From assembly GCA_026128965.1 (NCBI GenBank), contig JAHCIY010000002.1:2000468-2064467 (forward strand): a stretch of 64,000 bases of DNA, given 5' to 3'. Positions within the stretch are counted from its first letter, which is position 1, and each line of letters opens with the position of its first letter. A model generated the notes under the pieces. That model saw nothing but the letters and a program-made list of their open reading frames with translations, was not told the origin of the DNA and ran no database searches. This document shows positions 13,132-35,159 of this stretch, piece by piece. Source of the stretch: Labilithrix sp. Lineage in GTDB: Bacteria; Myxococcota_A; Polyangia; Polyangiales; Polyangiaceae. Position numbers and translations under genes: made by a program.

Positions 13132-14985
13132 ATGATGAGAGGCCCGATGAAGATCGCCCTGATCTACCCGCCGCCGTGGAAGATCGCAGCCCCCGGCGAG
13201 CCGCGGTACGCGGCGGACGGGCCGCCGGAGGGCTACCGCGAGGGCGACCTCGACGCGGACTTCCACCAGACGCCGTACGGGCTCTTCGCGATCGGCGCCG
13301 AGGCGCTGCGCGCGGGGCACATGGTCAAGGTCGTCAACCTCTCGTCGTTCCCGTGGACGAAGGTCGAGGAGGTGGTCGCCGCGCTCGACGCCGACGTCTT
13401 CGGGATGTCGTGCTGGACCGCGAACCGCCGCGGCGTGCGGCTCGTCGCCGACCTCGTCAAGCAGAGGCACCCGCGCGCGACCGTCGTCGTCGGCGGCCCC
13501 CACGCCACGCCGCTCGGCCCCGAGCTGCTCTCGCACTTCGAGAGCGTCGACCTCGTGTGCACCGGCGAGAGCGACGTCACCTTCCTCGAGATCGTCCGCC
13601 GCCTCGAGCGCGGCGAGCCGCTCACGAAGATCGCCGGCACGGTGTACCGCGACGGCGGGGAGGTCGTGACCGCGCCGGAGCGCAAGAACGTCGCCGACCT
13701 CGACGCGCTCGCGTCGCCGCATCACTTCTTCGACACGCACATCTTGATGACGTCGCGCGGCTGCCCGTGGGCCTGCACCTTCTGCGGCGCGGAGACGTCG
13801 TGGGGTCGCGGCTTCCGCGCGAACTCGATCGACTACGTGCTCGACGCGATGGAGAGCGTCAGCAAGCGGCTGCCGGTGAAGATGATCCAGATCAAGGACG
13901 ACACCTTCACGACGAACAAGAAGCGAGTCCTTGCATTGTGCAAGAAGATGCAGGAGCGGAAGCTCGGCTTCTTCTGGAGCTGCGATACGCGCGTCGATCT
14001 CCTCTCCGACGAGCTCCTCCGCGAGATGCGGCTCGCGGGGTGCCAGCGCCTCTCGCTCGGCGTCGAGAGCGGCTCGCAGCGCATCCTCGACCTCATCGAC
14101 AAGAAGATCACGCCGAAGGAGATCCTCGCGTCGACGTTGCTCGCGAAAAAATACGGGATCAAGGTCCGCTACTACATGATGCTCGGCAACCGCGGCGAGA
14201 CGCGGGAGACGTTCGCGGAGACGCTCGCCTTCCTCGACGAGGCGGCGCCGCACGAGTACGTGTTCTCGTGCCTCTCGGTGTACCCCGGCACGCGCGACTT
14301 CCACGACGCGGAGAAGGCGGGCTGGCTCGATCGCGAGCAATATTTCAGCGGCGACTTCCAGGAGCTGAAGACGCCGTTCGACGCGTCCGACGAGGACGTC
14401 GCGTGGATGAACGAGTGGTTCTTCGCGAACAAGGGGCTCCGCGTCGGCTTCCGGGACGGCGTCGCCGAGTACCGCGCCATCCTCGAGCGCCTCGGCGACT
14501 ACCACGCCGCGCACATGGACCTCGGCGCCGCGCTCTACCACGAGGGCGATCTCGAAGGGGCGGAGCGCCACGTGCGGCGCGCGCTCGAGCTCGGCTATCC
14601 GTGCCCCGGCCTCGCGTACAACCACCTCGCGTGTTTCGCGAAGGCGCGCGGCGACCTCGACGCGATGATGGACCTCTTCACGACCGCGGCGAAGACCGAC
14701 CCGCAGCACTGGACCCTGATCCAGAACGTGAACCGCGCGCGCGCGTGGTTCAAGGAGAGCGGCCCCGCGCGCGGGTTGCCGCTCGAGCTCGACGTCCGCC
14801 ACGACTTCCAGCTCCTCGAGCGCACCGCGCAGCCCACCCTCCCGGGCCCGCTGCCGGAGGACTTCGCGGTGTGGAAGGAGACGCCGCTCAAGGGCGACGC
14901 CGCTCCGCGCTGGCTCAAGACGCCGGAGCAGGAGGGGAGCGGCAAGGGTATGGGCAAGAAGCGGCTCGACGTGGTGCGCGATTGA
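13132..14985 (+). CDS. B12-binding radical SAM protein with a C-terminal TPR-like region
   Basis: N-terminal cobalamin-binding-domain-like region followed by the CPWACTFC (CxxxCxxC) radical SAM motif. The C-terminus has TPR-like helices (ALYHEGDLEGAERHVRRALELG). Confidence 0.8.
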   Translation: MMRGPMKIALIYPPPWKIAAPGEPRYAADGPPEGYREGDLDADFHQTPYGLFAIGAEALRAGHMVKVVNLSSFPWTKVEEVVAALDADVFGMSCWTANRRGVRLVADLVKQRHPRATVVVGGPHATPLGPELLSHFESVDLVCTGESDVTFLEIVRRLERGEPLTKIAGTVYRDGGEVVTAPERKNVADLDALASPHHFFDTHILMTSRGCPWACTFCGAETSWGRGFRANSIDYVLDAMESVSKRLPVKMIQIKDDTFTTNKKRVLALCKKMQERKLGFFWSCDTRVDLLSDELLREMRLAGCQRLSLGVESGSQRILDLIDKKITPKEILASTLLAKKYGIKVRYYMMLGNRGETRETFAETLAFLDEAAPHEYVFSCLSVYPGTRDFHDAEKAGWLDREQYFSGDFQELKTPFDASDEDVAWMNEWFFANKGLRVGFRDGVAEYRAILERLGDYHAAHMDLGAALYHEGDLEGAERHVRRALELGYPCPGLAYNHLACFAKARGDLDAMMDLFTTAAKTDPQHWTLIQNVNRARAWFKESGPARGLPLELDVRHDFQLLERTAQPTLPGPLPEDFAVWKETPLKGDAAPRWLKTPEQEGSGKGMGKKRLDVVRD

Positions 14986-14991
14986 GCAGGC

Positions 14992-16587
14992 TCAGGGACC
15001 GCCGCTCTTCACGTCGCGGCCGAGCGCGTGGTCGAGGCGGATGCGGGCGAGGCGCGCGTCCACCTTCGCGTTGAGGTGCTCGAAGCGGGACTGCGCGAGC
15101 GCGGTCTCCGCGTCGATGAGCGTGGTCGAGGTGCCGCGGCCCGCGTTGAACAGCTCGCGCGCGACGCGGTAGGCCTCCTCCGCGCTCTCGAGCTGGCGCG
15201 TCGTGGTCGTCACCGCGACGTCGGCCTCGAGGACCTCCTGGTACGTCTGCGCGACCTCGATCTCGATGCCGTCGCGCACGGTCTGCTTCTGCGCGTCGAG
15301 CGCGTTCGCGCGGGCGATCGCGTCGCCCTCGGCGGGGCCGGCGGTGAGGACGTCGTTCGGCGACCAGGTGATCTGCGCGCCCGCGGTCCAGGTCGGGAAC
15401 CACTCGTCGCGCTGCGGGAAGCGGCGCTGGTTCGGGTTCGCGTACGTCACGTCGCCGAAGGCGGAGAGGGAAGGGTACTTGCCGCGATCGGCGACCTTCG
15501 CGAGGCGCCGCGCGGCCTCGGCGTTCTTGTCGAGGCTCTTCAGCTCGGGGCGCGCGCCGTGCGCTTCGCTCACGAGCATCTTGAGGTCCTGCGGCGCCGC
15601 CGGCACCGGGCTGTCGAGGCTCTCGCCGGGCACGAGCGTCTCGTCCTCCTTCGCGTGCGTCGCGACGCGGACCTGGCGCTCGGTGATGAGCGCGCCGTTC
15701 TTGCCGCGCTCGACCGCGAGCTCCGCGGCGGCGACCTGCGTCTCCGCGCGGAGGACGTCGGCCTTCGACGCGTTGCCGACCTTGAACTGGTTCTCCGCGT
15801 CCTTGAGGTGCGCCTTCGCGACCGCGAGCGACTGCTCCGCGACGACGGCGGCGCTGCGGGCGCGGAGCCACGTGTAATATGCAATCTTTCCGTCGGAGTA
15901 CGACTTCGCGCGCGCGGTCGCGACGTCGTGGCGGGCGGCCTCCTCCTGCTTCAGCGCGGCGGTGTAGCCCTCGTTGATCTTGAGGAAGTAGTCGCTGATC
16001 GGGACCGAGATGGTGGCCTGCGCGACCCAGTTGTCGAGGATCATCGGGAACCTGATCCCGTTGAACGACGGCGGCAAGAACCCGCTCAAGCGCGTGTATC
16101 GGCCGAGGAGGCCGACGCGCGGGACGAAGTTGTTCCGCTGGCCGTCCGCGCGCGCCTCCGCGGCCTGCGCGTTGTCCGCCGCGGCCTTCGCCTGGTAGCT
16201 CGTCGCGGCCGCGCGCTGCGCGACCTGATCGGCGGTGATGCCGCCGGCGACGGTCGTGCTGAGGTCGGGGACGCCGCTCGTCGCGCCTTGCTGGGTCACA
16301 GTGTCGCGCGGGGCTCCGGGCGCCATCGTCGGCGGCGGGGGCGAGTAGCCGGGCTGCGCCGGCGTCACGGTCGGCGCGGGGGCGGGCCCCGCGGTCGGCG
16401 GCGCGGGGGCGGGCGGCGGCGTGTACGTCGGGACCGGCGCCTGCGTCTGCGGGATCGTGTACGGCGTCGTTCCCGCGTTCTGGTTGTTCGGGTTCTGCTG
16501 CGCGGCGGCGGTCGCCGCGGTGAGCGAGCTGCCGAGGGCGAGCGCGCACGCCGCGTACGACGCGGGGCGCGTTCCAAAGCTACGCAT
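14992..16587 (-). CDS. TolC-like outer membrane efflux protein
   Basis: Signal peptide, Pro/Thr/Ala-rich linker, then two TolC-type repeat halves (alpha-helical coiled-coil plus beta-barrel segments). The ATG complementary to 16585-16587 is preceded by an AAAGGA ribosome-binding site. Confidence 0.75.
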   Translation of the reverse strand: MRSFGTRPASYAACALALGSSLTAATAAAQQNPNNQNAGTTPYTIPQTQAPVPTYTPPPAPAPPTAGPAPAPTVTPAQPGYSPPPPTMAPGAPRDTVTQQGATSGVPDLSTTVAGGITADQVAQRAAATSYQAKAAADNAQAAEARADGQRNNFVPRVGLLGRYTRLSGFLPPSFNGIRFPMILDNWVAQATISVPISDYFLKINEGYTAALKQEEAARHDVATARAKSYSDGKIAYYTWLRARSAAVVAEQSLAVAKAHLKDAENQFKVGNASKADVLRAETQVAAAELAVERGKNGALITERQVRVATHAKEDETLVPGESLDSPVPAAPQDLKMLVSEAHGARPELKSLDKNAEAARRLAKVADRGKYPSLSAFGDVTYANPNQRRFPQRDEWFPTWTAGAQITWSPNDVLTAGPAEGDAIARANALDAQKQTVRDGIEIEVAQTYQEVLEADVAVTTTTRQLESAEEAYRVARELFNAGRGTSTTLIDAETALAQSRFEHLNAKVDARLARIRLDHALGRDVKSGGP

Positions 16588-19096: not shown

Positions 19097-19465
19097 TCAC
19101 TTCTTCTTGTGGTGCTTGCCCTTACCGTGCCCGCCGGCGCGAAGCTCCTTCGAGATCTGCCGTACGGCCTTGGCCTCGTCTTTCGTGACGGTCCCATCCG
19201 CCGTCGCCTTGGCGACCTCGGCGTTGACCTTGGCGACCCCGGCATCGAACTTGGCGCGAAGCGCCTTCGCGTCGTCCGCCGACAGCTTCGACGCCCGCTT
19301 CTCCATCCGTTCCCGCGCCTTCGCCTGCCGCGCCGTCACCTTCTGCTGAAACGCCGCCGCCGGCATCGGAAAGCTCGCCCCACCTTTGTGCTCCCCCGCC
19401 ATCGCCGGCGCCGCCGCAAGGAGGGTAGAGATCGCAAGAACCGCAGCCGTGATCGTGGAACGCAT
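19097..19465 (-). CDS. small secreted Lys/Ala-rich periplasmic protein
   Basis: The internal start MTMRSTITAAVLAISTLLAAAPAMA gives a clean signal peptide. The mature part is helical and K/A-rich. Confidence 0.45.
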   Translation of the reverse strand: MRSTITAAVLAISTLLAAAPAMAGEHKGGASFPMPAAAFQQKVTARQAKARERMEKRASKLSADDAKALRAKFDAGVAKVNAEVAKATADGTVTKDEAKAVRQISKELRAGGHGKGKHHKKK

Positions 19466-19556: not shown

Positions 19557-20435
19557 TTACCGTTCTTTACGGGCCGCGAAGTGCTGCGCCGCGACGATTC
19601 GGAGCTGCTGTGTCGCACGGGCCCAATCGCGCACCGCGGGCTGCAGCTCCGGCGCTTCGGTTTGGTAGGTTACAACCTGAGCTGCGATGAGATCGAGGCG
19701 CTCTTCCACTGTGAGGGTGGGCGGAAGGGGGGCGACGCCGTGTTTGCCGCGCGCATCCATACGCCCAAGCGATACGGAGAGGCTGATACGACGCCCCTCG
19801 GCCCGAGGCGAGCAAGCGCCGCCCCAGTGAAGAACATTCGCGTTCCAGACGACGGTTGTGCCTGCCGTCACCGGCACGGCGCGCACGGAGGCCAGCGGCG
19901 CGTCCGTCGAGTCGAGGGCGTTCGGGTAGTGCGGATCTTCGTCGAGCGGGACCACATGCATACACGCGCGCTCTGCGGTGACGTCGGAGAGCGCCGTCCA
20001 CGCCGTGAGCAGCTCGGGCGCTTCGCGGTCGAGGAGGACCGAGCCGCCTCCGCGATGCGGCTTCCAACCACGCTCCCCCGGCGCGATCGACCAGGCCCAG
20101 GCGTCTTCGAGGAGCTCGTACGTATGGCCGAGAAGGAGGCTCACGGTACGTTCGATCTCGCGGGCATGGCGCCACACGTCGTCGAGCATGAAGACGAACA
20201 CCGGCGGCCACCGCGCGGCATGCAAAGTCTCCATCGCGCGGCACAGGCTACGCGCTCGCGCGCTCGTGAGCGCGCCGGCAATGACGGCATATCCCTCGGT
20301 TCTCAGCCACGTCAGCTCCTGCGTGTCCGCGGCCGGGCAGGCGTCGTCGGCTCCTGTTCCGTCCATCAGCTCCGTGAACGCCGCTGCGAGCTCACGGGGG
20401 GAGCGAAGAAGCTCGGGCGCGAGCGAACGCATCAT
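19557..20435 (-). CDS. PhyH-family Fe(II)/2-oxoglutarate-dependent oxygenase-like protein, divergent from the lasso precursor gene
   Basis: The core LTAWTALSDVTAERACMHVVPL matches the PhyH w.alDd.t.enG.l.v.pg motif. The C-terminal GTTVVWNANVLHWGG..SPRAEGRR matches the distal-His plus Arg 2OG-binding motif. In the first His motif, PHRGGG replaces the usual WHxD. Confidence 0.55.
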   Translation of the reverse strand: MMRSLAPELLRSPRELAAAFTELMDGTGADDACPAADTQELTWLRTEGYAVIAGALTSARARSLCRAMETLHAARWPPVFVFMLDDVWRHAREIERTVSLLLGHTYELLEDAWAWSIAPGERGWKPHRGGGSVLLDREAPELLTAWTALSDVTAERACMHVVPLDEDPHYPNALDSTDAPLASVRAVPVTAGTTVVWNANVLHWGGACSPRAEGRRISLSVSLGRMDARGKHGVAPLPPTLTVEERLDLIAAQVVTYQTEAPELQPAVRDWARATQQLRIVAAQHFAARKER

Positions 20436-20527: not shown

Positions 20528-20722
20528 ATGGAGATGAGCGCCGAACCGAAGGCCCCGAGCGAGATCGAGACGCCATCCGCGGCGTCAGCGAGGGAGCGTC
20601 GTCCCTACCATCCTCCGAAGCTTCGTTGTCTGGGTTCTGTTCGAGACCTCACTTATGGAACCGGCGAGATGTTCCCCGACTTCTCGGGTGGTCCGGCTGG
20701 GGCCATGGCCGCGCCGATGTGA
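20528..20722 (+). CDS. lasso peptide precursor (A); predicted core GTGEMFPDFSGGPAGAMAAPM
   Basis: The leader ...PYHPPKLRCLGSVRDLTY places Y-17, P-14, L-12, G-8 and T-2 relative to core Gly1, which is the YxxPxLx3Gx5Tx RRE-recognition motif. The core has Gly1 and Asp8. Its stop is coupled (ATGTGA) to the start of the next gene. An alternative ATG at 20534 follows GGAG. Confidence 0.6.
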   Translation: MEMSAEPKAPSEIETPSAASARERRPYHPPKLRCLGSVRDLTYGTGEMFPDFSGGPAGAMAAPM

Positions 20723-22110
20723 CCGAGGCGCCGTACCTCGTCTTCTCCAGCCGCCTCTGTCGCAGCGAGCGCCTCACGGACGTCGTCCGCGGCGGTATGA
20801 TCCCGCCGAATCCGGACGTGTATGCGGCCTACGCGAGGTGGTCGCTTCTCGTCGACCATGAAGCGACGCCGTATCGCGGCGTCGTGTCGACGCTCGTCGA
20901 GTCGAACGGGGCGCCGTCGAATGCAGAGCCAGACGTTCCGGTGCCCGCCGATGAAGAAAGCGCGGCACGCGCGCTGCGCCAGAGCCTCGAGGCGGCGGTT
21001 CAGGCGTCGATGGGCGATGCGCGCCGGGTCGCGGTGTCCACCGGCGGCGGTCTCGACTCCGGCGTTCTCCTTGCGCTCGCCGTGCACGTCGCGCGGAGAG
21101 CGAAGAAGGAGGTCGTCGCCGTCGCGCTCGACTTCGGCGGCGCTGGCGATGATCGACCTTACCTCGCGGATCTCGAGCGCGAGCTCTCTTGCGAAGTCGT
21201 GCGCGTTCCGCCCGAGCGCGGTGCCGACCACGTTGCGTTGCTCGACGGCGTCGACGCAGCGCCCTTCTATTGCCCGACAGGGCCGATGGAAGCGGCCGTG
21301 ATGGAGCACGCCCGTGCCGCCGGCGCGGAGCGTGTGCTGACGGGAGCCGGCGGGGATCAGCTCTTCGACGGGCGCGCGACCGATCTGGCAAGCTTCCTCC
21401 GTCGCGGTCACGTCCTCGAGGGGATTCGGCGGGCGCAAACGCTTCGTGGCTTCGAGCAGCCACGCTCTCCGATCGTTACCTGGCTCGTGCGCCCGCTCCT
21501 CGCGAGCCTCCTTCCGCCTTCGATCCGAGCTCGCCGCGCGGGACGGTCGAGCGGTTTCGTCCCGGCGTGGGCAGGCCCCGCGCTCGAGGACCTGGAGGCG
21601 AGGCGGCGCCGTCAGACGACGGCCATGCTGGAGAAGTGCCTTCCCGATCTACGGCCATTCGAGGATCGGATCTTCGTCGCGCAACGTGTTCAGTTCGCGT
21701 GGCTTCGTCATCAACAGACGCTGACGAGCGGCATTCGTAGAGTCGACCCGTTCCTGCGCCCAGACCTCGTGCAACGGGTCCGCTCCCTCCCGCGCGAATG
21801 GCTCCTCCATGGCGGCATTCGACGAGGTCTCTTGCGCGCCGCCGTCCGCGATCTGATCCCGGCCTCGTTGGCTCGTCGTGAGGACAAGGCCTCCGTCGAG
21901 CCTGCGCTCGTCCGTTTCCTCCGCGCCATCGGAGGGCGCGCGGCGCTGCGACCATATGCGTCCGTCGACGTGCTCGCTTCGCTCGGTGTCGTCGACCGCG
22001 CTCGCTTCGCCGCGGCCTACGAGGCCTTCGTCGACCAACCCGCGCATCCGGCTGGATGGCTCGGCGCGTGGTGTGTCCTCGCGCTCGAGCGCTTCGCGAG
22101 GACCGCGTGA
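20719..22110 (+). CDS. asparagine-synthetase-like lasso cyclase (C)
   Basis: SGGLDS PP-loop (VSTGGGLDSGVLLALA) and a C-terminal asparagine-synthase-type domain. The GTG start overlaps the precursor stop. The N-terminal GATase-like region is short. Confidence 0.7.
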   Translation: MTEAPYLVFSSRLCRSERLTDVVRGGMIPPNPDVYAAYARWSLLVDHEATPYRGVVSTLVESNGAPSNAEPDVPVPADEESAARALRQSLEAAVQASMGDARRVAVSTGGGLDSGVLLALAVHVARRAKKEVVAVALDFGGAGDDRPYLADLERELSCEVVRVPPERGADHVALLDGVDAAPFYCPTGPMEAAVMEHARAAGAERVLTGAGGDQLFDGRATDLASFLRRGHVLEGIRRAQTLRGFEQPRSPIVTWLVRPLLASLLPPSIRARRAGRSSGFVPAWAGPALEDLEARRRRQTTAMLEKCLPDLRPFEDRIFVAQRVQFAWLRHQQTLTSGIRRVDPFLRPDLVQRVRSLPREWLLHGGIRRGLLRAAVRDLIPASLARREDKASVEPALVRFLRAIGGRAALRPYASVDVLASLGVVDRARFAAAYEAFVDQPAHPAGWLGAWCVLALERFARTA

Positions 22111-22910
22111 GCGTGCGGTGGTTGGCTCATCACGAAGTCGACGGAGCGCTCGCCTTCCGCATAGGAGCGACCGGATCCGACGGGCTCGTGGCCGAGTGGA
22201 TGGGGATCGGCCGACTCGTCTCCGATCGGGCGGGGTGCAACGCGCGCTTCGAACCCGAGCCGGGGGCTTCGCCGGAGCTGCTGGCGAAGGTCGAACGTGG
22301 CGGTGCCGCGATGCTGCTCCGTCATCTCTCCGGCGGCCTTGCGCTGCACGGCGCGTGCGTCGCGATCGGTCGACGCTCGGTCCTCCTGACCGGCCAGAGC
22401 GGAGCGGGCAAATCCACGCTCGCGGCCTGGCTCGTCGCGCGCACGTCCGACGCGGAGCTCGTGAGCGACGATCTCACGCCCCTCGAGCTCGACGAACGAG
22501 GGTGGGCTGCGCTTCCTCTGGAGCGCGATCATTGGCTCGACGCGGTCGCGGTTGAGGCGCTCGGGAGCGCGTCGATGGAGTCCGCGAACAAGCGGCCGTT
22601 TCCGGCGCCCCGTTCGGCGCGCGGGGCGACACACCTCGCCGCCATCGTCTCGCTCGAGTTCGCCGACGCCGACGCGCCGATCTTGTCGACCGTGAGCGGC
22701 GTCGAGGGACTCCACATCCTCTTGAAGCAATCGGTCCGCTTCGCGATCGACGAGCCTGAGCGACATCGTCGCGAGCTGGACGTGCTCGTCGCGCTCGCCT
22801 CGGACGTCGCCATCCTCCGTCTCTCGCGACGCCGGGACCTCTCGGCACTGAGTCACGCCGGCGAAAGGCTTGAGACGTGGCTGCGAACGGGTAGGGTCGA
22901 TCAGCCATGA
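22107..22910 (+). CDS. HPr kinase/phosphorylase-like protein (lasso peptide kinase candidate)
   Basis: GQSGAGKST P-loop followed by LVSDD, as in the HprK C-terminal domain. The GTG start overlaps the stop of the C gene. An alternative ATG lies at 22056. Confidence 0.7.
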   Translation: MSVRWLAHHEVDGALAFRIGATGSDGLVAEWMGIGRLVSDRAGCNARFEPEPGASPELLAKVERGGAAMLLRHLSGGLALHGACVAIGRRSVLLTGQSGAGKSTLAAWLVARTSDAELVSDDLTPLELDERGWAALPLERDHWLDAVAVEALGSASMESANKRPFPAPRSARGATHLAAIVSLEFADADAPILSTVSGVEGLHILLKQSVRFAIDEPERHRRELDVLVALASDVAILRLSRRRDLSALSHAGERLETWLRTGRVDQP

Positions 22911-23197
22911 ACGTGCCCGAGACCATCGACGCCGCGACCTCGGTAGAGGCATCGGACAACGTGTACGCGAGGCGTTTCGGCGACGAGCTGATCCTCCTTC
23001 ATTTCGGGCGTGGTGAGTACTACGGGCTCGACCCCGTCGGTGCGTGCATATGGGAACGCTGCGCTGCCGGTGAGACGCTTGGCGACATAGCGCGCGAGGT
23101 CGTGCGATCGTTCGACGTCGACTACCGGCAGGCGCTCGCGGACGTCGTGGCGCTCGTGGGCGAGCTGCGAACGGCAGGATTGGTCAAGGAGCGTTGA
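22907..23197 (+). CDS. PqqD-like RiPP recognition element protein (lasso B1)
   Basis: 96 aa with ELILLHFGRGEYYGLDPVGACIWE..GETLGDIA...VDYRQALADVVALVGELRTAGLV, which is typical of PqqD/RRE. ATGA overlap with the kinase stop. Confidence 0.75.
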   Translation: MNVPETIDAATSVEASDNVYARRFGDELILLHFGRGEYYGLDPVGACIWERCAAGETLGDIAREVVRSFDVDYRQALADVVALVGELRTAGLVKER

Positions 23198-23243: not shown

Positions 23244-24266
23244 ATGAAGTCCCTTCGCTTGATCATCGGGGCGTCCGTTGCGCTCTCCGCGAGCATGGCT
23301 CTGCTCGTCGCTTGCGGCGATGACGCAGGCCTCGTCCTCGACGTCGTAGACTCCGGTACCGACGGAACGGTAGCGGACGTGAACCGTCCAGACGCGGTGG
23401 GCGATGTCGACGTGCCCGACGTCGACGTGCCCGACGCCGACACGCCCGACGTCGACGTGCCCGACGCGGACGCGGGAGTGGACGACGGCGGGCCGACGTT
23501 CTTCGATGCGGCGACGTTCGATGCGGGTCCCGACGCCGGGTTCGTGCCTGACTCGGGGGGAGCCGCGGTCCAGCTCGGGGAGGTCTTCTGCAGTACCGTC
23601 GCGCGTTGCTGCTTCGGCGACGCCACCCTCCAGCAGGGAGCTCCGCTTCCGGGCGGCGGCACCTACAACCGCCAAAAGTGCCTGAACAACTACGCGAACA
23701 ACGGGTTCGAGCAAGCGAGCAACGGCTCGGCGGTGAATCCGAACCACGTCATCGTCAGTCAGACCAACAGCGCGGACTGCGCGCAAAAGCTCGAGGCGCT
23801 GACCTGCAACGTCGGGTTCGACGAGTTCAAGGCGGTCCGAGCTGCCTGCTATGGTGCGCTCCTCGGCACTCAAGGGCCGGAGCAATCGTGCTCCGTCAGC
23901 GCCGAGTGCCAAGCCGGTCTCTTCTGCAACAACCCGACGAACGGCAACGATACGGGTAAGTGCGAGCTCGTTCGCGCGACGGGCGCGAACTGCGGCGACT
24001 TCACGACCAACGCCAATACCTCTCAGCACGCCTGCTCGTATCGCTACAGCGGTGACCCGCCTCGCTACTGCGAGTGGTTTGACTTTACCGAGCTCAAGGC
24101 GCTCCCTCCCGCGGAGTGGAAGTGCAGGGACGCGAAGCCGAACGGCTCCGACTGCGTCTCTTCGGCCTGGTGCTCGGCCGGTATCTGCAACTTCGACACA
24201 GCGAAGTGCGAGACTCCGACGACGTACTTTACCACGGACGACTGCTCCCAATACCGGACGCCCTAG
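23244..24266 (+). CDS. Cys-rich lipoprotein with a DVDVPD-repeat linker
   Basis: Lipobox LLVACGDD, a VDVPDVDVPDADTPDVDVPDAD repeat and about 20 Cys in the C-terminal domain. It is inserted between lasso B1 and the nucleotidyltransferase gene. Confidence 0.55.
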   Translation: MKSLRLIIGASVALSASMALLVACGDDAGLVLDVVDSGTDGTVADVNRPDAVGDVDVPDVDVPDADTPDVDVPDADAGVDDGGPTFFDAATFDAGPDAGFVPDSGGAAVQLGEVFCSTVARCCFGDATLQQGAPLPGGGTYNRQKCLNNYANNGFEQASNGSAVNPNHVIVSQTNSADCAQKLEALTCNVGFDEFKAVRAACYGALLGTQGPEQSCSVSAECQAGLFCNNPTNGNDTGKCELVRATGANCGDFTTNANTSQHACSYRYSGDPPRYCEWFDFTELKALPPAEWKCRDAKPNGSDCVSSAWCSAGICNFDTAKCETPTTYFTTDDCSQYRTP

Positions 24267-24278
24267 ATCGCGCGGGTC

Positions 24279-25286
24279 ATGCGAGAGCCTCTGGCGCGAG
24301 CGGACGAGGCGCTCGTGAGAGTTCTGCGCGGCGACGTGCCGGCCTGGCTCGACGACGTCCACGCTCTCTTCGTCCGCGCGGAGGTGCATGGTCTTGCGGG
24401 GGTCGTGGACGCGAAGCTGCGAGGACGGCCCGAGCTCGACGAGTCGCTCCGCGACGTTCGGCTTCGCGAGCTGGCACGGGCGCTCGACCACGCAGCTCAT
24501 CTCGATCTCCTCCACCGTATCGATCACGCGTTGGTGAGCGCGGGCATCGGCGCGATCGCGCTGAAGGGCGCCCTCCTGGCCGAGAGGCTGTATGCCACGC
24601 CGTCGTCTCGGGTAACGAGTGACGTCGACCTCCTGGTCGCCGAAGCCGACACTCTTGCTGCGATCGAAGCGCTGTCCACGATCGGGTACTCGCACGACGA
24701 CAACGAGACCGAGCGGCGCTATCGGCGCGAGCATCACCACCTCCACCTCTCGCATGCGGCGTCGCTTCCGCTCGAGCTCCACTTCCACGCGTATCGTGGT
24801 TTTGGCTCGACGTTGCGGAGCGAGCCGCTTCTGCGCCGGAAGGAGCGTGTTCGCGATTTCGAGGCTATCGGCGTGCTGTCCGCCTCGGACGAGCTCGCTT
24901 ACCTTGCCGTGCACGCGGCCGCTCATCGGTTTGGGCGCATCGCCTGGCTCTACGAGCTCGCCCTCCTCGTTGGCCGAATGTCGGGCGAGGAGGTCGCCCT
25001 CGCAGCTCGTCACGCGGCCGATGCCGGGTATCGCCGGGTGGTCGGCTTCGCGGCGGATCTCCTCGTCGACGTGTTGGGAGTCGATCCTGCGCGCGTCGCG
25101 CCTCTGCGACGACTCGGGAGCTCACGAGGGCGTGTTGCTCGTGCCCTCGTGCGCGAACCCGCGCATCCGCGTATGCGCTCGCTGTCACGCTTCGTCTATT
25201 CGCTCGCGCTCTGCGACGATCCCGCCTCGACTGTGCGCTACGCGAGACGAGCGGTGCTCGGATACATCACCGCGCGTAGCGCATGA
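24279..25286 (+). CDS. PF14907-type (NTP_transf_5) nucleotidyltransferase-family protein
   Basis: GIGAIALKGALLAERLY....SDVDLLV motif and a C-terminal helical domain. This family is commonly linked to lasso/HPrK-type clusters. Confidence 0.65.
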   Translation: MREPLARADEALVRVLRGDVPAWLDDVHALFVRAEVHGLAGVVDAKLRGRPELDESLRDVRLRELARALDHAAHLDLLHRIDHALVSAGIGAIALKGALLAERLYATPSSRVTSDVDLLVAEADTLAAIEALSTIGYSHDDNETERRYRREHHHLHLSHAASLPLELHFHAYRGFGSTLRSEPLLRRKERVRDFEAIGVLSASDELAYLAVHAAAHRFGRIAWLYELALLVGRMSGEEVALAARHAADAGYRRVVGFAADLLVDVLGVDPARVAPLRRLGSSRGRVARALVREPAHPRMRSLSRFVYSLALCDDPASTVRYARRAVLGYITARSA

Positions 25287-26436
25287 CGAGCTCGCGCACC
25301 TGCCGCGCGAGCGAGGCGCGCGGGTGTTTCGGGAACGCTGCCGCCGTCCGCTCCTCGATGTCGTGGAGAGATGCGGTGCCATCCATCGCGGAGAGGACGA
25401 ACGACGCGAGCGCCGCGCGCGGGCCACGCTCGGGGGCGAAGGACGAGGACGCCTTGCGCAACGTCTCGATCCCGACAGGCATACCGAAGAAGCTGGCCTG
25501 ACGGAGCGCGATCTCCTTGCGGTCGACGTCGGTCGCGCTGACGTTCCAGGCCCATTGCACCGCTTGCTCGTCGACACGGAGCGTCACTTCGATCCGAGCA
25601 CCGCGCGCGACGCGGATCGGGCGGAGGAGCGGCAAGACGGTGCGTGGGTACGCCATCGTCGTTCCCGGGCGGTTCTCGTACTCGATGTCATCGTCGACGC
25701 GGGCCTTGAACCAGACGACGAGGCCGTGCATCTCGGCGTCGCGCGTGGCCTCGAGCGCCACCGTGCCCGCGATGACGCCTCCTTGCCATGACCCATAGTC
25801 GACCGCACCCCAGGACGTGGAGGTGGTCACGACGTCGCTCGCGGTCACCTGCAAGAGATCGCGTTCGGAGTGCCGGGTATTGAGGGTCGAGAAGAGCGCG
25901 GCCTCGCCGCGAAAGCCGAGGCGCTCGAAGCTCTGGGCCGTCAGCGAGAGACGATGCTGGAGCTCGAAGGACTCGAAACCGGCCACGAAGAACTCGTCGG
26001 CGACGGGGAACATCACGCCTCCGGGGCGCAGGAAGCGCGCGCGTGCGTCGCGTACGATCTCCGCGTGCTGGTCGTGCAACGCGAAGGCGCCGCGCAAGTC
26101 GGATACTACGACGTCGGCCTTCTCCGAGAGCTCGACGTCGAACGAGCTCGCGGCGTGAACGTGGATCTTCGACGCGAGCCCGTTCTCGGCCGCCAGGTCG
26201 CGAAGGAGATGGACTGCAGGATTGATCTCGATCGCATGAACGGCGCGCGCGCCGAGGCGCGCCGCGATTAGCGCCGCGATGCCTGTACCGGATCCGATGT
26301 CGACGACGACGGAGTCTGCGGTCACACGTCGCGACAGGGCGCGAGCGTAGGCGTCCATCCGGACACCGTCCCGCATCATCGCGGCATAGCTCAAGACCGA
26401 ATACATCGCTCGAGTAGACCAGAATGGTCCTAGCAT
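25267..26436 (-). CDS. class I SAM-dependent methyltransferase (PRMT-like fold)
   Basis: SAM-binding motif VVVDIGSGTGIAALIAARLGARAVHAIE, a post-I acidic residue and THW-like beta-barrel C-terminal region. An alternative start at M11 is possible. Confidence 0.7.
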   Translation of the reverse strand: MLGPFWSTRAMYSVLSYAAMMRDGVRMDAYARALSRRVTADSVVVDIGSGTGIAALIAARLGARAVHAIEINPAVHLLRDLAAENGLASKIHVHAASSFDVELSEKADVVVSDLRGAFALHDQHAEIVRDARARFLRPGGVMFPVADEFFVAGFESFELQHRLSLTAQSFERLGFRGEAALFSTLNTRHSERDLLQVTASDVVTTSTSWGAVDYGSWQGGVIAGTVALEATRDAEMHGLVVWFKARVDDDIEYENRPGTTMAYPRTVLPLLRPIRVARGARIEVTLRVDEQAVQWAWNVSATDVDRKEIALRQASFFGMPVGIETLRKASSSFAPERGPRAALASFVLSAMDGTASLHDIEERTAAAFPKHPRASLARQVRELVMRYAR

Positions 26437-26443
26437 CGCGAGG

Positions 26444-28048
26444 TTGTCTCCGGTGGACGTCGCTCACTCGCGGTTGAGTCTCCGGAACCTACTCGTTCTC
26501 GTTCGCAGTTGTACGACTGCGAGGACACGGCGTCTCCTTCTCCTGCTCTTACTCCTCTGCCTTGGCGCGCGCTTCGGCCTCGTCGGCGTCGCTGTCGCTG
26601 TCTCGGCGCAGCGCTACGACGTCGCCGGCATCGTCAGCGTCGCGGCCGTCGCGCTCGGCTTCGCCCAACGGATCGCCGTCTCGCACCTCCGCGTCGCGAT
26701 CGAGTGTGACGCGCTCGTGCACGTCGCTCGACGTCTTCTCGGGTCCGACCTATTCGAGACGTCCGAGTTCGCATTGCGGCTCGCGGTCGAGAACGGGATC
26801 TGGGACATCCAGGAGTTGCTCCTCATGGCGCCGAGCGCGATCGCCGATGCGATCGTGACGCTCGGTTTGCTGCCCGTCCTCGGGGCGGTCGTTCCACCGC
26901 GGTTACTCGCGCTGGCCGTCGTCGCGCTCGTCGTCGTGTTCGGTGCGAGCCTTGCGTTTCGGCGCACGGCCTTCCGTCTCCATGCCGAGACGATGGAGGC
27001 TCGCATGAAGGTCGCCGACACCTTCTCGCTTGCGGTCGAAGGACGGCTAGAGATGGTCGCGATGGGCGCGGAGGAGCGCTTCGAGGAACGGTTCGCTCGT
27101 GACATCGCCGAGTACGCCCGCCGGAACCGCCGCAGCGCATTCGGGACACTCACGATCGGTCGTGCACCGCTCGTCGCAGCGGCAATGCTGATCGCCCTCG
27201 TCATCTTGCTCGACGTCGGCACACGCGCTGCGCTGACGGAGGCGCTCGCGCGCTGGGCGCTGCTGCTCGGCGCTTCGTTGCCGTCGCTGCTCGGCGTTTC
27301 GCTCGGGGTTCAAGGGCTCCTTCGTGGGAGCGCGAAGGTCCAGCCGCTTGCGGAGGTGATGTCCAGCCGACTGCGCGAGCCAGGCGGGACGCAGACGCCG
27401 GTGCTCCCGGCCGCTGTGCGCGTCGACGCGCTGAGCTTTGCGTACGGCGGTGCGAGCGCTCCGCCGCTCCTTCGTGACCTCTCGTTCGAGTGGAGCCCGG
27501 GGCGCGTCCTCCTCCTCAGCGGTCCCAACGGATCGGGCAAGAGCACGGTCCTCCGTCTCCTGCTCGGACTGCGACGGCCGACGTCCGGTTCCATCCGCGT
27601 CGATGGCACCGATCTCGCGCGCCTCGATCTGCGCGCGCTCCGCGAGCAGGTCGTCTTCCTTCCGCAGCGGCCCTACCTCGGCGAGAGCCACGTCAGCGTT
27701 CGCGCCGCGCTCCTCTTCGGGCGCACGGCAAAGACGGATCGAGAGTGCGAGGTCGCGCTCGAGCGGGTCAAGCTCGACCTCGGCGCGCGTCCGCTCGATC
27801 GAAGGCTCACTGAGCTCTCGGGTGGGCAGAGGCAGCGTCTCGCGCTCGCGCGTGTGCTGCTTCAGGACGCGCAGGCGTTCTTGCTCGACGAGCCGGACGC
27901 AAACCTCGACCGGGCAGGTGTGCATCTCGTGATGGCGCTCGTTCGTGAGCTGGCGGAGGAAGGAAAGCTCGTCGCGATGGCGGCCCACTCGACCGAGCTC
28001 GCCGAGGTTGCCGACGAGATCGTTGCGGTCAAGGCGCCGGGCGGGTGA
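26444..28048 (+). CDS. ABC exporter with fused transmembrane and ATPase domains (lasso D-type)
   Basis: N-terminal TM helices. Walker A (LSGPNGSGKST), signature (LSGGQRQRLALARVL) and Walker B (FLLDEPDANLD). Confidence 0.75.
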   Translation: MSPVDVAHSRLSLRNLLVLVRSCTTARTRRLLLLLLLLCLGARFGLVGVAVAVSAQRYDVAGIVSVAAVALGFAQRIAVSHLRVAIECDALVHVARRLLGSDLFETSEFALRLAVENGIWDIQELLLMAPSAIADAIVTLGLLPVLGAVVPPRLLALAVVALVVVFGASLAFRRTAFRLHAETMEARMKVADTFSLAVEGRLEMVAMGAEERFEERFARDIAEYARRNRRSAFGTLTIGRAPLVAAAMLIALVILLDVGTRAALTEALARWALLLGASLPSLLGVSLGVQGLLRGSAKVQPLAEVMSSRLREPGGTQTPVLPAAVRVDALSFAYGGASAPPLLRDLSFEWSPGRVLLLSGPNGSGKSTVLRLLLGLRRPTSGSIRVDGTDLARLDLRALREQVVFLPQRPYLGESHVSVRAALLFGRTAKTDRECEVALERVKLDLGARPLDRRLTELSGGQRQRLALARVLLQDAQAFLLDEPDANLDRAGVHLVMALVRELAEEGKLVAMAAHSTELAEVADEIVAVKAPGG

Positions 28049-28226: not shown

Positions 28227-29096
28227 ATGGCGACGGCGCCGCTCCTCAGCGTTGGAATCCCGTTCCTCGACGAGGAGCGCCTGCTCGCGGCTGCGATCCG
28301 CAGCGTGCTCGCGCAGACGATGTCGGACTTCGAGTTGCTCGTCATCGACGACGGCTCGACGGATCGCTCGTTGGAGATCGCCCGCGGTTTCGCCGATCCT
28401 CGCATCATCGTGCGCTCCGATGGCCGGAGGAGGCACCTCGCGACTCGACTCAATGAGGTCACGCGGCACGCGCGCGGGCGCTACGTGGCCCGGATGGACG
28501 CTGACGACGTCGCGCATCCGCGACGTTTCGAGGAGCAGCTCCGGCTGCTCGAGCGCGACCCTGCGTGCGACGCAGTCGGGACCTGGGCTGGCATGATCGA
28601 CGAGCACGCGGAGCCTCTGGCGATAATCGAAGCGTCGGAGCACGGCCTCACTCCGCGGCGCGTTCTCGAGCATGGGGTCATGCCGCACCCAACGCTCCTC
28701 GCTCGCCGCGAGTGGTTTCTCGCCCATCCCTACGACGAGACGCTCACGCGGACGGAGGATCGAGAGCTCTGGTGCCGTACCGCGGCACGGACGCGTTTCG
28801 CGATCGTGCCGTCGCCGCTCTACGTTCTTCGTGTCCGACCGACCGAGCCGTCGTTCGTCTCCGACTACGTCGAGACACAGCGGCAGAACTGCGTGCTGTT
28901 TCGTCGGTACGGCCCGCAGATGATCGGGCGCACCGGCACCGCGCGCGCGTGGTTGAGCGCGCATGGCAAGTCTCTGGTGACGCGCGCGGCCGTCGCGCTC
29001 GGAGCCGGCGACCGTCTGGTTCGCCGCCGCGGGCGTGCACCGACGGCGCCGGAGCGCGCGCTCATCGACGAAGCGGTGGCGGCAGCGCGCGGGTGA
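28227..29096 (+). CDS. family 2 glycosyltransferase
   Basis: LSVGIPFLDEERLLAAAIRSVLAQTMSDFELLVIDDGSTD is the GT2 DxD-region signature. The ATG at 28227 is preferred over the ORF start at 27945. Confidence 0.7.
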   Translation: MATAPLLSVGIPFLDEERLLAAAIRSVLAQTMSDFELLVIDDGSTDRSLEIARGFADPRIIVRSDGRRRHLATRLNEVTRHARGRYVARMDADDVAHPRRFEEQLRLLERDPACDAVGTWAGMIDEHAEPLAIIEASEHGLTPRRVLEHGVMPHPTLLARREWFLAHPYDETLTRTEDRELWCRTAARTRFAIVPSPLYVLRVRPTEPSFVSDYVETQRQNCVLFRRYGPQMIGRTGTARAWLSAHGKSLVTRAAVALGAGDRLVRRRGRAPTAPERALIDEAVAAARG

Positions 29097-29102
29097 CGGG
29101 CG

Positions 29103-30611
29103 TCACGGCGTCTCCACCTTCGGGCACTCCTGGTCGAAGTGAGCCGGGTTCACCGTGACCTGCTCGGGCGCTCCGTAGGCCGCGACTAGCGCGAAGTGCT
29201 CGTAGCCGCATGGGGTCACGGTGAGCGGTTTTACGCCGTCTTTTCGGAGCTTGGTGCCGCGTTCGATCTGTTCGGTGCGGGCTTCGCTTGGGTGCATGCC
29301 TGGCGTCGTGCCGTCGGCGCGGAGGAGGGAGATGAGCCAGGCGATGGCGATGAAGCCGCCGAATGCCTTCTGTGCCTTTGGGATGGCTGGCTTCGTTTCG
29401 CCGTTCTTCGTCGTGCGGATCCATGGGGTCAGGACCACGTCGGCGAGGAAGAGCGCGAAGATCACGAAGCCCCCTAGCAGGGCGCGCTCTGCATGGTGTG
29501 CCGGGGCGCCGTCGCGGGCGTTGCCGATGGAGAGGAACGCTAGCTGCGCGAACGCCGCGAGGAGGGGGAGGCCCCAGCGGCGGCGGACCTGTCGATCGAC
29601 GAAGGCGAGCGGTGAGAGCACGAGGGCCGGGAGCGTGACCTCCGGGCGCACCGCGAAGAGGAGCTTCGGATAGAAGAACAGCGCCGACGCCCAGCTCGTC
29701 GCGCCGTCGCCGATCGCGCGCTTGTAGGTCGAGACGCGGCGGAAGAAATGGAGCGGGCCGTCGTGCGCGTGCGCGTTCCATGCCATCCACATGAGCGGGC
29801 CCGCCACGCAGAGGGCGACGGCGGCGACGATGAGACGCGGGCGCTTCGGCGAACGCCGGAGCGTGACGCCGACCCAGATCGCCGCGACCGCCGCCGCCGG
29901 CCACGCCTCGTAGCGCGAGAGACACGCCGCGAAGAGCGCGGCGCCGAAGCCGAGCGGCGCGGCCTCGCGAAGGGCGGTCTTCGCTGTCTTCTCGCGCGCG
30001 AGGTCCGTCGGCGAGGCGCCGTCGCGCGCGCGCGCGGCCACCGTCGCGAGCCCCAGCACGCCCGCAGCGGTGAGCGCCGCGGTGAAGGACTCGGGCACCG
30101 TCGTCGCGCCGGACCACAGCATCCACGGCGTCCCGAGCGCGAAGACGAGCGCGACGAACGCGCGCGGCCACGGGACGCCGGAGAGGCGCAGCGCGACGAA
30201 GGGGAGAGGCGCGGCGAGGCTCGAGAACAGGATCGAGAGGGCGCGCGCGGTGGCGAGGTCGCGGCCGAGGAGCTTCATCCCGAGGCCGAGGATCCAGAAC
30301 GGGAAGGGGAGCCAGCTCGTGCCGCTCGGGTCGAGACGCGCGTGATGGGCGAAGCCCTGCGCGATGACGACGCGCGAGAAGTCGTCGTCGGAGATGTGGT
30401 CGAACCCGAGGTTCCGCAGCCACGCGCACGCAAAGGCGTGAAGGAGCGCGATCGCACACGCCGCGAGGAGGAGCGAGCGCGTGCTCGCCGCCGGCGATTC
30501 GACGATGCGCTCGGGCCCCGGCTCGGCGATCGCGGCTCCCTCCGGTGCGGCCGCGGCTGCGTTCGGCCGACCGTCGTCGTGACGCGGCCGCGCCTTCTTC
30601 CGCGCCGCCAT
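29103..30611 (-). CDS. polytopic membrane protein, possibly a GT-C (ArnT/PMT-like) glycosyltransferase
   Basis: About 11 hydrophobic helices. A DDDF acidic motif sits in the first extracytoplasmic loop after TM1. Co-directional with, and immediately downstream of, secG. Confidence 0.45.
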   Translation of the reverse strand: MAARKKARPRHDDGRPNAAAAAPEGAAIAEPGPERIVESPAASTRSLLLAACAIALLHAFACAWLRNLGFDHISDDDFSRVVIAQGFAHHARLDPSGTSWLPFPFWILGLGMKLLGRDLATARALSILFSSLAAPLPFVALRLSGVPWPRAFVALVFALGTPWMLWSGATTVPESFTAALTAAGVLGLATVAARARDGASPTDLAREKTAKTALREAAPLGFGAALFAACLSRYEAWPAAAVAAIWVGVTLRRSPKRPRLIVAAVALCVAGPLMWMAWNAHAHDGPLHFFRRVSTYKRAIGDGATSWASALFFYPKLLFAVRPEVTLPALVLSPLAFVDRQVRRRWGLPLLAAFAQLAFLSIGNARDGAPAHHAERALLGGFVIFALFLADVVLTPWIRTTKNGETKPAIPKAQKAFGGFIAIAWLISLLRADGTTPGMHPSEARTEQIERGTKLRKDGVKPLTVTPCGYEHFALVAAYGAPEQVTVNPAHFDQECPKVETP

Positions 30612-34235: not shown

Positions 34236-35144
34236 CTACTGGCAGACCTTGTCGACGCACTTCGGCTCGGTCGGCGGGACGCACGGCGGGACGATCAAGG
34301 TGCAGCCCTGCTTCTTGTACTCCTGGCAGTTGCTGTCGTTCACCGTCTTCTTGATCATCTCGAGCTCGGTGGCGCCGGTCTTGTTCATCGCGCCGGTGCA
34401 CTGGTCGACGCAGTCGGCGTTGATCGCGACGGTCGTGCAGTCGGCGTCGCCGTTGCACGCCTTGTGGCGCGCGACCGCGTCGGTGAGCAGCTTGCCGACG
34501 TAGCTCTCGATCGCCTGGCAGGACACGGCCGGACAGATCTGCTCGCAGCCCGGGCCCATCGACGCGGGGGTGCCGTCGGCGCAGATGCGTTGGATGGCGG
34601 GGCAGGCGATCGGGATCTCGCCCGGGCAGGCGAACTCGCAATTCGGGCCGGTGCGGCCGACGAACGAGCCGTCGGGGCACTTCTTCGCGTCGTCGGTGCA
34701 CACGGTTTGACCGGGGCACCTGAACTCGCACTTGGGGCCGGAGCGGCCGACCGTGGTCCCGTCGGGACAGAGGAGCGCGTCCGCGTCGCAGACGACGGGG
34801 TCGCACGTCTTCACCGTGCACATGATGCCGCGCGCCGCGCACGTGCAGGAATTGCAGCCGTCGATCGAGGTGAAGTCGTCGCCGAGCTTGTAGGTCGGCA
34901 CCGGTGCGGTCGGAGACGATGCCCTCACCTGATCGTAGAGCGCCGTGTCGGCCCATGAGCACGTCGAGCCGTCGCCGGTCGGGGAGCCGTCCTTCTTCGT
35001 TTGCAGCTGCTGATCGGAGGTTTCGGTCTTTCCGACGGTAACGGCGCTTCCGCCGCAAGCGACGATAACGAGGGCGACGGACGAAGCGACGGCGGCGCGG
35101 CGCGTGGGGCTCACGAGGCTCATGGGGCTCATGGGGCGGTTCAT
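34236..35144 (-). CDS. Cys-rich repeat lipoprotein (paralog 1)
   Basis: Lipobox VIVACGG. Repeated CPDG(S/T)xVGRxGPxCEFxCPG modules. Confidence 0.6.
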   Translation of the reverse strand: MNRPMSPMSLVSPTRRAAVASSVALVIVACGGSAVTVGKTETSDQQLQTKKDGSPTGDGSTCSWADTALYDQVRASSPTAPVPTYKLGDDFTSIDGCNSCTCAARGIMCTVKTCDPVVCDADALLCPDGTTVGRSGPKCEFRCPGQTVCTDDAKKCPDGSFVGRTGPNCEFACPGEIPIACPAIQRICADGTPASMGPGCEQICPAVSCQAIESYVGKLLTDAVARHKACNGDADCTTVAINADCVDQCTGAMNKTGATELEMIKKTVNDSNCQEYKKQGCTLIVPPCVPPTEPKCVDKVCQ

Positions 35145-35159
35145 CCTCTTACTGCTTCG

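Follow-up and report, generated by a model that had tools for sequence, protein, structure and literature searches.

A putative lasso peptide precursor gene and its cluster, without a local B2 peptidase, in Labilithrix and related Polyangia

The precursor reading frame and its operon

We analysed a stretch of 64,000 nucleotides (nt) from Labilithrix sp. (assembly GCA_026128965.1, contig JAHCIY010000002.1, positions 2,000,468 to 2,064,467 of the forward strand), which we call the window and in whose coordinates all positions are given. A small open reading frame (ORF) at 20528-20722 had been proposed in a preliminary description, made from the sequence alone, to encode the precursor of a lasso peptide. 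This ORF, here called gene A, is followed by genes for a cyclase, a kinase and a recognition protein:

20528..20722, plus strand: precursor gene A (leader, core and stop), with homologous small ORFs at 40 related loci
20528-20656, plus strand: leader of A, 43 amino acids (aa), or 41 aa if ATG 20534 is used
20657-20719, plus strand: core of A, 21 aa, followed by the stop codon TGA at 20720-20722
20719..22110, plus strand: lasso cyclase C, asparagine-synthetase-like, 463 aa (PF00733, E 1.3e-23); GTG start, overlap GTGA
22107..22910, plus strand: HPr-kinase-like peptide kinase K, 267 aa (Hpr_kinase_C, 29 bits); its GTG overlaps the stop of C
22907..23197, plus strand: B1, a PqqD-type recognition element for RiPPs (peptides made on ribosomes and modified after translation), 96 aa (PF05402, E 9.1e-18); its ATG overlaps the stop of K

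Translation of 20528-20722 on the plus strand gives the leader MEMSAEPKAPSEIETPSAASARERRPYHPPKLRCLGSVRDLTY, then the core GTGEMFPDFSGGPAGAMAAPM and then the stop. Counted back from Gly1, the leader has Tyr at -17, Pro at -14, Leu at -12, Gly at -8 and Thr at -2, and its last residue is Tyr-1. The translation confirms every residue that had been assigned to the lasso leader motif YxxPxLx3Gx5Tx, the one recognised by B1. The core begins GTGEM and carries Gly1, Thr2, Met5, Phe6, Asp8, Phe9, Ser10, Met17 and Met21. Translation of A may in truth begin at the second ATG (20534), 6 nt downstream of a GGAG, in keeping with the 'MS...' starts of the homologues; the finding is not affected by this choice.

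The stop TGA of A overlaps the GTG of the cyclase at 20719 by 4 nt (junction CCGATGTGACC). A, C, K and B1 form an operon with 4-nt overlaps GTGA, GTGA and ATGA, and A is translationally coupled to a lasso-type cyclase. The identification of A as a lasso precursor is strongly supported by this adjoining cyclase (PF00733) and by the PqqD-type B1 in the same operon.

Taken alone, the leader motif is weakly significant: translated in six frames, the window contains a single instance of the loose pattern [YFW]xxPxLx3Gx5Tx, compared with 0.2 occurrences expected per mononucleotide shuffle. It is the position of A on the cyclase start, its recurrence at related loci and the conservation outside the searched pattern that make the call decisive.

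The preliminary description had also remarked on atypical, T-ending codons in the middle of the ORF. This holds: 15 of the 64 sense codons of A end in T, and 12 of these fall within the 20 codons from Arg-20 to Tyr-1, that is, in the motif stretch. The G+C content at third codon positions (GC3) is lowered as well, to 0.69 in the ORF and 0.63 in its leader, in a window with 70.6% G+C overall.

No NCBIfam model matched the precursor, and a word-indexed protein search with its 64 aa returned no homologue. The latter search stayed empty since fewer than three 5-residue words are common to the query and its homologues; these were reached via the cyclase.

Conservation at related loci and the competing frame

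The protein collection contained cyclase homologues (n = 15), the contigs being unclassified Logan metagenome contigs. A genome scan with the single cyclase sequence gave no match. An alignment-based cyclase scan, with one genome per species, added 35 further loci, all in Myxococcota metagenome-assembled genomes (MAGs) labelled Labilithrix, Polyangiaceae, Polyangiales, Myxococcales, Nannocystis and, in one case, 'Proteobacteria bacterium'. The Logan contigs nearest to the window (L001-L007) agree in their gene order, namely the small ORF, the cyclase, the kinase, the PqqD protein, a protein of about 320 aa, an NTP_transf_5 protein, a GT2 glycosyltransferase, a methyltransferase and an ATP-binding cassette (ABC) transporter, often with a PhyH gene divergent upstream.

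A six-frame search with the strict motif gave a single match in each of 38 of the 44 sources, with the exception of L032, which has two. The matches always lie on the cyclase strand, immediately upstream of the cyclase. The small ORF is present at all 40 related loci that have DNA upstream of the cyclase, and the strict pattern is found in 37 of them. In the precursors of L012 and L022, Val or Ile replaces Leu-12, which corresponds to a relaxed pattern, and the L022 core has Glu7; at L043 the small ORF is present and the cyclase is represented by a fragment. The other sources are L031, L033, L039 and L041 (no DNA upstream of the cyclase) and L044 (a duplicate of the window without that region).

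In the alignment of the window and 37 related loci the motif spacing is exact. Residue counts were made over these 38 distinct strict-pattern precursors. Outside the searched pattern, Leu-9 and Arg-5 are conserved in 38/38, Val-6 in 36/38 and Ser-7 in 35/38. The first core residue is Gly in 35 precursors and Ala in three. An Asp or Glu stands at core position 8 in 31, at position 9 in five and at both 7 and 9 in one; the remaining precursor, at L045, has none. These counts bear out the Gly1...Asp8 core that had been read from the window peptide; its Phe6 and Phe9, also named there, are found in the translation. The leader-core junction falls between Tyr-1 and Gly1, and an acidic residue at core position 8 is characteristic of the family.

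At the DNA level, nucleotide entropy, summed over the 18 codons of the motif, comes to 11.8 bits at the first, 9.3 bits at the second and 26.2 bits at the third codon position, and in the columns with invariant residues the variation is confined to the third base. Purifying selection acts on the reading frame of A. Within the closest subfamily, the mean pairwise identity is 68% for the leader motif and 22% for the core; a conserved leader joined to a variable core is the usual RiPP signature. Since the leader is conserved, the core is hypervariable and the DNA variation is concentrated at third codon positions, we conclude that the frame of A is translated, and we consider it very probable indeed that 20528-20722 is a translated gene for a lasso-type precursor.

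It could still be argued that the small ORF is no gene at all, that the cyclase starts upstream (at TTG 20626 or ATG 20500) and that the motif is a chance match. Public annotation reads the locus in this way. Our cyclase has a counterpart with 100% identity among the NCBI proteins, from a Labilithrix sp. MAG (GCA_019637155.1, contig JAHBWE010000023.1). That record gives the cyclase 494 aa from TTG 20626 (20626-22110), so that it overlies the 3' half of the small ORF, and it calls no gene, and hence no precursor, between PhyH and the cyclase. The chance expectation for the loose motif and the low GC3 of the small ORF would be in keeping with this reading. However, 12 cyclase homologues align from GTG 20719, and the upstream extension has no counterpart in any of them. 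The nearest homologue starts MTLPHLVFS, as compared with (M)TEAPYLVFS here, and the homologues have lengths of 409-497 aa. Moreover, a gap of 50-100 nt separates the small ORF from the cyclase in L003 and L004 and excludes any overlap, and the small ORF is conserved at 40 related loci with third-position variation. The comparative data refute the rival, to which we assign a negligible probability. The N-terminal alignment at 20719, the spacing in L003 and L004 and the conservation of the small ORF also rule out the frame-1 extension of the cyclase (20500..), which had been named as a possible true frame; the small-ORF reading survives that check. It also survives the two others that had been named, since the ORF is present at homologous loci and the alignment keeps the spacing of the motif.

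In the same NCBI record the kinase is a 149-aa fragment (22461-22910) that lacks the P-loop (Walker A). The public calls are mistaken on three counts: the cyclase start is set 31 codons too early, the kinase is cut and the precursor is missed. A natural-product gene is absent from the public record, and two of its neighbours are mis-called.

Several of the related loci have unusual precursors. At the distant locus L045 (about 4880-4990, plus strand) the leader motif is kept, with Met at -6, and the core GSSGPQHATGLSGWRGRHH has neither Asp nor Glu, so that a normal isopeptide ring is impossible there. L032, a contig of a Nannocystis exedens MAG, carries tandem precursor genes at 1588 and 1782 (plus strand) with the near-identical cores GRTGRGGDFASLRS and GATGRGGDFASLRGNRS. 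L008 has a 175-aa 'precursor' (3791-4318, plus strand) with the same leader motif and a Gly1...Asp8 start, continued by a follower of about 110 aa with a weak match to Peptidase_S74, an intramolecular chaperone.

Cluster enzymes, known systems and the predicted product

Beyond the operon, the cluster comprises the following genes:

19557..20435, minus strand: PhyH-like Fe/2-oxoglutarate (Fe/2OG) oxygenase (PF05721, E 2.7e-9), divergent from A
23244..24266, plus strand: lipoprotein X, 340 aa (signal peptide, Asp/Thr/Gly-rich linker and a Cys-rich domain of about 230 aa)
24279..25286, plus strand: N, NTP_transf_5 nucleotidyltransferase (PF14907, E 1e-27)
25267..26436, minus strand: S-adenosylmethionine (SAM)-dependent methyltransferase, PrmA-like, 389 aa (PrmA and Methyltransf_25 matches)
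26444..28048, plus strand: D, ABC exporter, fused permease and ATPase (ABC_tran E 3.6e-32; weak ABC_membrane match)
28227..29096, plus strand: GT2 glycosyltransferase, 289 aa from ATG 28227 (PF00535, E 2.8e-29), this start being suggested by homologue lengths of 287-295 aa

The PP-loop GGGxDS of the cyclase is invariant among its homologues. Its best NCBIfam matches are three models of lasso or macrolactam cyclases, all below their curated cut-offs, and B1 matches two lasso PqqD chaperone models with 52 and 41 bits, again below the cut-off. The kinase aligns to the sequences of HPrK/P crystal structures over lHG...GxSGxGKS...sDD, and its His, Gly-Lys-Ser and Asp-Asp (H156, K177, D196 and D197 in ORF numbering) show conservation of at least 95% among 37 homologues; these His-Lys-Asp-Asp residues are essential in lasso kinases (PMC9266682). 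N has a conserved DxD and several conserved His residues, and it carries the same Pfam family annotation as PsmN and BsfN. In the methyltransferase, the SAM motif DxGxGTG is invariant.

Lipoprotein X has a lipobox in all homologues and 20 invariant cysteines after the Asp/Thr/Gly-rich linker. Its family counts 148 cluster representatives among 1.84 billion proteins, and every located member adjoins a cyclase of this lasso family. The AlphaFold model of X is confident and has no significant match to any solved structure. Since X is extracytoplasmic, it is excluded from the ATP-dependent steps; immunity, binding and partnership in export are all possible roles.

Among studied systems, the bsf cluster of Bradymonas sediminis FA350 comes closest; it comprises A, B1, B2, C, D, K and N and has YxxPxL at -17 to -12 and Gly1-Asp8 (PMC10368454); we liken the two by architecture and published description, not by sequence alignment. 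Both have a split B1, an HPr-kinase-like K, an NTP_transf_5-type N, an ABC exporter, the YxxPxL motif, Gly1 and Asp8 for the predicted ring and a hydroxyl residue near its start (Ser3 in bsf, Thr2 here). BsfK phosphorylates Ser3 only when B1 is present (PMC10368454). On the other hand, bsf has a B2 and an Ile at -2, whereas the window cluster has Thr at -2 and no B2, and it adds the PhyH-like enzyme, the PrmA-like methyltransferase, GT2 and X.

The paeninodin and pseudomycoidin systems of Bacillota (PadeK/ThcoK, PsmK, PsmN; PMC6993621, PMC9266682) share with the window the His-Lys-Asp-Asp kinase, a nucleotidyltransferase-like N and tailoring on the linear precursor. They differ in that their acceptor is a C-terminal Ser while the window core ends in Met, and in that their clusters encode B2 and lack PhyH, methyltransferase, GT2 and X. 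In pseudomycoidin, PsmK adds the phosphate and PsmN, whose DxD is essential, is needed for the hexoses on it (PMC6993621). The presence of a kinase and a PsmN-like enzyme together with a bona fide GT2 bears on the question whether PsmN-type proteins are themselves glycosyltransferases. With canonical class II systems, such as fusilassin and the split-B clusters predicted by RODEO, the window shares YxxPxLx3Gx5Tx, Gly1, an Asp or Glu at positions 7-9, a PP-loop cyclase, a PqqD B1 and an ABC exporter; unlike them, it has no transglutaminase-like B2 and its cyclase is short (463 aa), and no curated NCBIfam model reaches its cut-off on the window precursor or cyclase.

B2 apart, the genes make up a lasso cluster with split B, of the kinase/nucleotidyltransferase type. 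Judged by its leader, core, cyclase, B1 and exporter, the system works like a class II lasso of this type. The precursor is of a known kind; what is new is a cluster that lacks B2 and has X, a PhyH-like enzyme with an HxG site (see below), a PrmA-like methyltransferase and GT2. In the literature that we searched there was no myxobacterial lasso peptide, no paper on lasso peptides of Labilithrix and none that describes this family in myxobacteria or Myxococcota. We are confident, a little less so than for translation of the ORF itself, that A is the precursor of a lasso cluster conserved in Labilithrix and related Polyangia (Myxococcota).

From established lasso biochemistry we infer the following course of biosynthesis. 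While the precursor is still linear and bound to B1, K would phosphorylate a Ser or Thr of the ring, here Thr2, in the manner of BsfK with Ser3. The nucleotidyltransferase, GT2 or both would then put a sugar on the phosphate, as PsmN does. The leader would be cut after Tyr-1, and the cyclase would adenylate the side chain of Asp8 and join it to the amine of Gly1. The result would be an 8-residue macrolactam threaded by a 13-residue tail, to be exported by the ABC transporter; its calculated [M+H]+ is 1980.83, as compared with 1998.84 for the linear core. That the product is a threaded Gly1-Asp8 lasso made along these lines seems probable to us.

Several points weigh against this proposal. The lasso product is a prediction from genes, and even in the bsf system the mature lasso was never detected (PMC10368454). 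The tail has few bulky residues (Phe9, Met17 and Met21), and a stable threaded fold is not assured. The kinase scores 29 bits against Hpr_kinase_C, below the Pfam cut-off of 33.3. The C-terminal Ser of most kinase-type lasso clusters, which is strictly conserved and phosphorylated in those of Bacillota and Sphingomonads (PMC9266682), is absent from the window core. Finally, a defining enzyme of the pathway, B2, is missing locally: PF13471 (Transglut_core3) has no Pfam match in any ORF of the cluster or in 30 other ORFs of the window. We return to this enzyme in the next section.

As for the site of phosphorylation, Thr2 and Ser10 had both been named as candidates. Of the 38 precursors, 32 have a Ser or Thr as second or third core residue, albeit in cores that are rich in Gly, Ser and Thr anyway, so that Thr2 is a plausible phosphate acceptor in the window peptide. 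Ser10, by comparison, is not conserved.

At the other end of the core, the last residue is Met in 21 of the 38 precursors, including that of the window, and Ser in three. The PhyH-like gene adjoins the precursor in 17 related loci and is more distal in L011; it probably encodes a tailoring enzyme. The precursor ends in Met in 17 of 18 loci with a PhyH-like gene, compared with about 3 of the 15 that lack one and have upstream DNA long enough to show this. The loci are phylogenetically related, and we treat this association as a lead. The conserved Met at the C-terminus may be a target of the PhyH-like enzyme and the methyltransferase.

A Gly or Ala in place of the carboxylate ligand is the hallmark of Fe/2OG halogenases. 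The usual metal-binding motif is HxD; in 20 of 21 cluster-linked homologues of the PhyH-like enzyme, H-R-G (GW[PK]PHRG) stands in the column where a paralogue has H-E-D. This reading of the site as HxG comes from one paralogue alignment, a profile search against PDB having aligned only the C-terminal half with the distal His. The site resembles, as far as this alignment goes, that of the Fe/2OG halogenases.

The missing B2 peptidase and the chromosomal setting

We built a hidden Markov model (HMM) from nine B2 proteins found in related myxobacterial clusters and applied it unfiltered, up to E 100, to every stop-to-stop ORF of 50 aa or more. Its own nine members (L008, L023-25, L027, L030, L033, L035 and L037, E about 1e-40) are all that it recovers; the 64 kb window gives no match, nor does any locus of the closest subfamily, among them eight with 10 kb on either side.

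Where B2 is present, in more distant relatives, its position varies. It directly follows B1 and precedes X in L023, L024 and L030, comes after the PqqD gene in the more distant L008 and lies after GT2 in L045. In L035 a single ORF (14841-16250, minus strand) has an N-terminal B2 peptidase domain fused to NTP_transf_5, which suggests that B2 and the nucleotidyltransferase work together physically. The simplest history would be that B2 was lost or relocated from an ancestral order A-C-K-B1-B2-X.

Since more than 20 loci without B2 keep the precursor, B1 and Thr-2 under selection, the pathway is evidently used, and some agent must take off the leader. Our best guess, which we hold only slightly above its alternatives taken together, is that the leader is cut by a B2 encoded elsewhere in the genome. 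A non-B2 protease would be a clearly less likely agent, and the small share that is left goes to other routes. For a non-B2 route there is a precedent in pseudomycoidin, which is formed in E. coli and B. subtilis with neither PsmB1 nor PsmB2 present (PMC6993621).

A related view accepts the precursor as real and holds that without B2 there is no canonical threaded lasso: either a non-B2 protease or a novel cluster protein would take off the leader, with a product that may be a branched-cyclic or some other kind of peptide, or the B2 of a second lasso cluster would be borrowed. In its favour, neither the window nor the closest loci encode B2, while they retain B1 and Thr-2, and the place of B2 between B1 and X in L023, L024 and L030 suggests a loss from that very position. 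Pseudomycoidin forms in E. coli with neither B1 nor B2 and, when its tailoring is lacking, is not threaded (PMC6993621), and some MAGs carry two clusters of this lasso family (L015 and L036 in one, L028 and L038 in another). However, Thr-2 and the entire leader are strictly conserved, which argues for a B2-type enzyme that still reads the leader. The methyltransferase has no protease-like domain and no conserved Cys/His pair, and X, being a secreted lipoprotein, cannot act before the ATP-dependent cyclisation. We consider this view improbable and keep to the threaded Gly1-Asp8 lasso.

Three candidates for the missing enzyme were tried and rejected. The conserved ORF of 121-128 aa beyond PhyH encodes a Lys/Ala-rich protein with a signal peptide and has no similarity to B2. 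X occupies the place of B2 after B1, but it co-occurs with B2 in L023, L024 and L030, is secreted and has no protease-like fold match. The C-terminal half of the methyltransferase could have hidden a protease, and the pair of conserved residues mentioned above is lacking. P0111, a B2 homologue taken up in tracing a B2 elsewhere in the same genome, belongs to the cluster of another organism.

Bolder still is the idea that the family matures its lasso without any B2-type peptidase, the leader being removed by a non-homologous enzyme or a cluster protein, and that it may, in addition, have tailoring that is new to lasso peptides, namely a modified C-terminal Met and phospho-glycosylation within the ring by K, N and GT2. 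In detail, the Met would be acted on by the halogenase-like HxG Fe/2OG enzyme or by the PrmA-like methyltransferase, and X, with its novel fold, would be an extracytoplasmic partner, for example as immunity protein, receptor or chaperone. As a whole we find this combination unlikely.

A family that keeps B1, Thr-2 and the full leader and has lost B2 is a natural test case for the coupling of leader removal and cyclisation, and it bears on the question whether genome-mining tools that require B2 miss lasso clusters. To find one more lasso precursor is routine; what merits experiment is that B2 loss is conserved and the tailoring set unexplored in an uncultured predatory lineage.

The unusual codon usage had been taken as a hint of horizontal origin. 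A recent horizontal acquisition of the cluster could indeed explain why GC3 is 0.69 in A and 0.76-0.84 in the other cluster genes as compared with 0.89-0.96 in the flanking genes, and why the GC content dips over about 17-29 kb. However, relatives with cyclases of only 43-55% identity have the cluster between the same neighbours, with the gene for a small secreted Lys/Ala-rich protein on its upstream side and those for a multi-pass membrane protein and SecG on its downstream side. In these relatives GC3 is lowered too. A tRNA scan of the 64 kb window found none, and no integrase or transposase family matched among the Pfam-scanned window ORFs; a promoter scan gave nothing useful. Since the cluster keeps the same chromosomal position in relatives, a recent horizontal event is unsupported and, in our estimate, quite improbable. 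The cluster has had its offset in composition for a long time.

The family is widespread in uncultured Labilithrix and Polyangiaceae, with a fixed chromosomal position and a hypervariable core. Such a pattern is typical of molecules under diversifying selection, for example the antagonistic peptides of predatory bacteria.

Of the flanking genes, the one for the small secreted, helical Lys/Ala-rich protein (19097-19465, minus strand, about 120 aa) is highly conserved directly upstream of the cluster region at about 20 related loci and serves as a synteny marker. The multi-pass membrane protein (29103-30611, minus strand, 502 aa) is convergent with GT2 and is kept at the edge of the cluster in L004. 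Neither Pfam nor PDB gave a match to it, and its early 'SDDDF' loop motif is, we presume, reminiscent of GT-C glycosyltransferases. Elsewhere in the window, a B12-binding radical SAM protein with TPR repeats (13132-14985, plus strand) adjoins an outer-membrane efflux protein, and two adjacent proteins at 34236-35897 (minus strand) carry Cys-rich modules similar to Pacifastin inhibitors.

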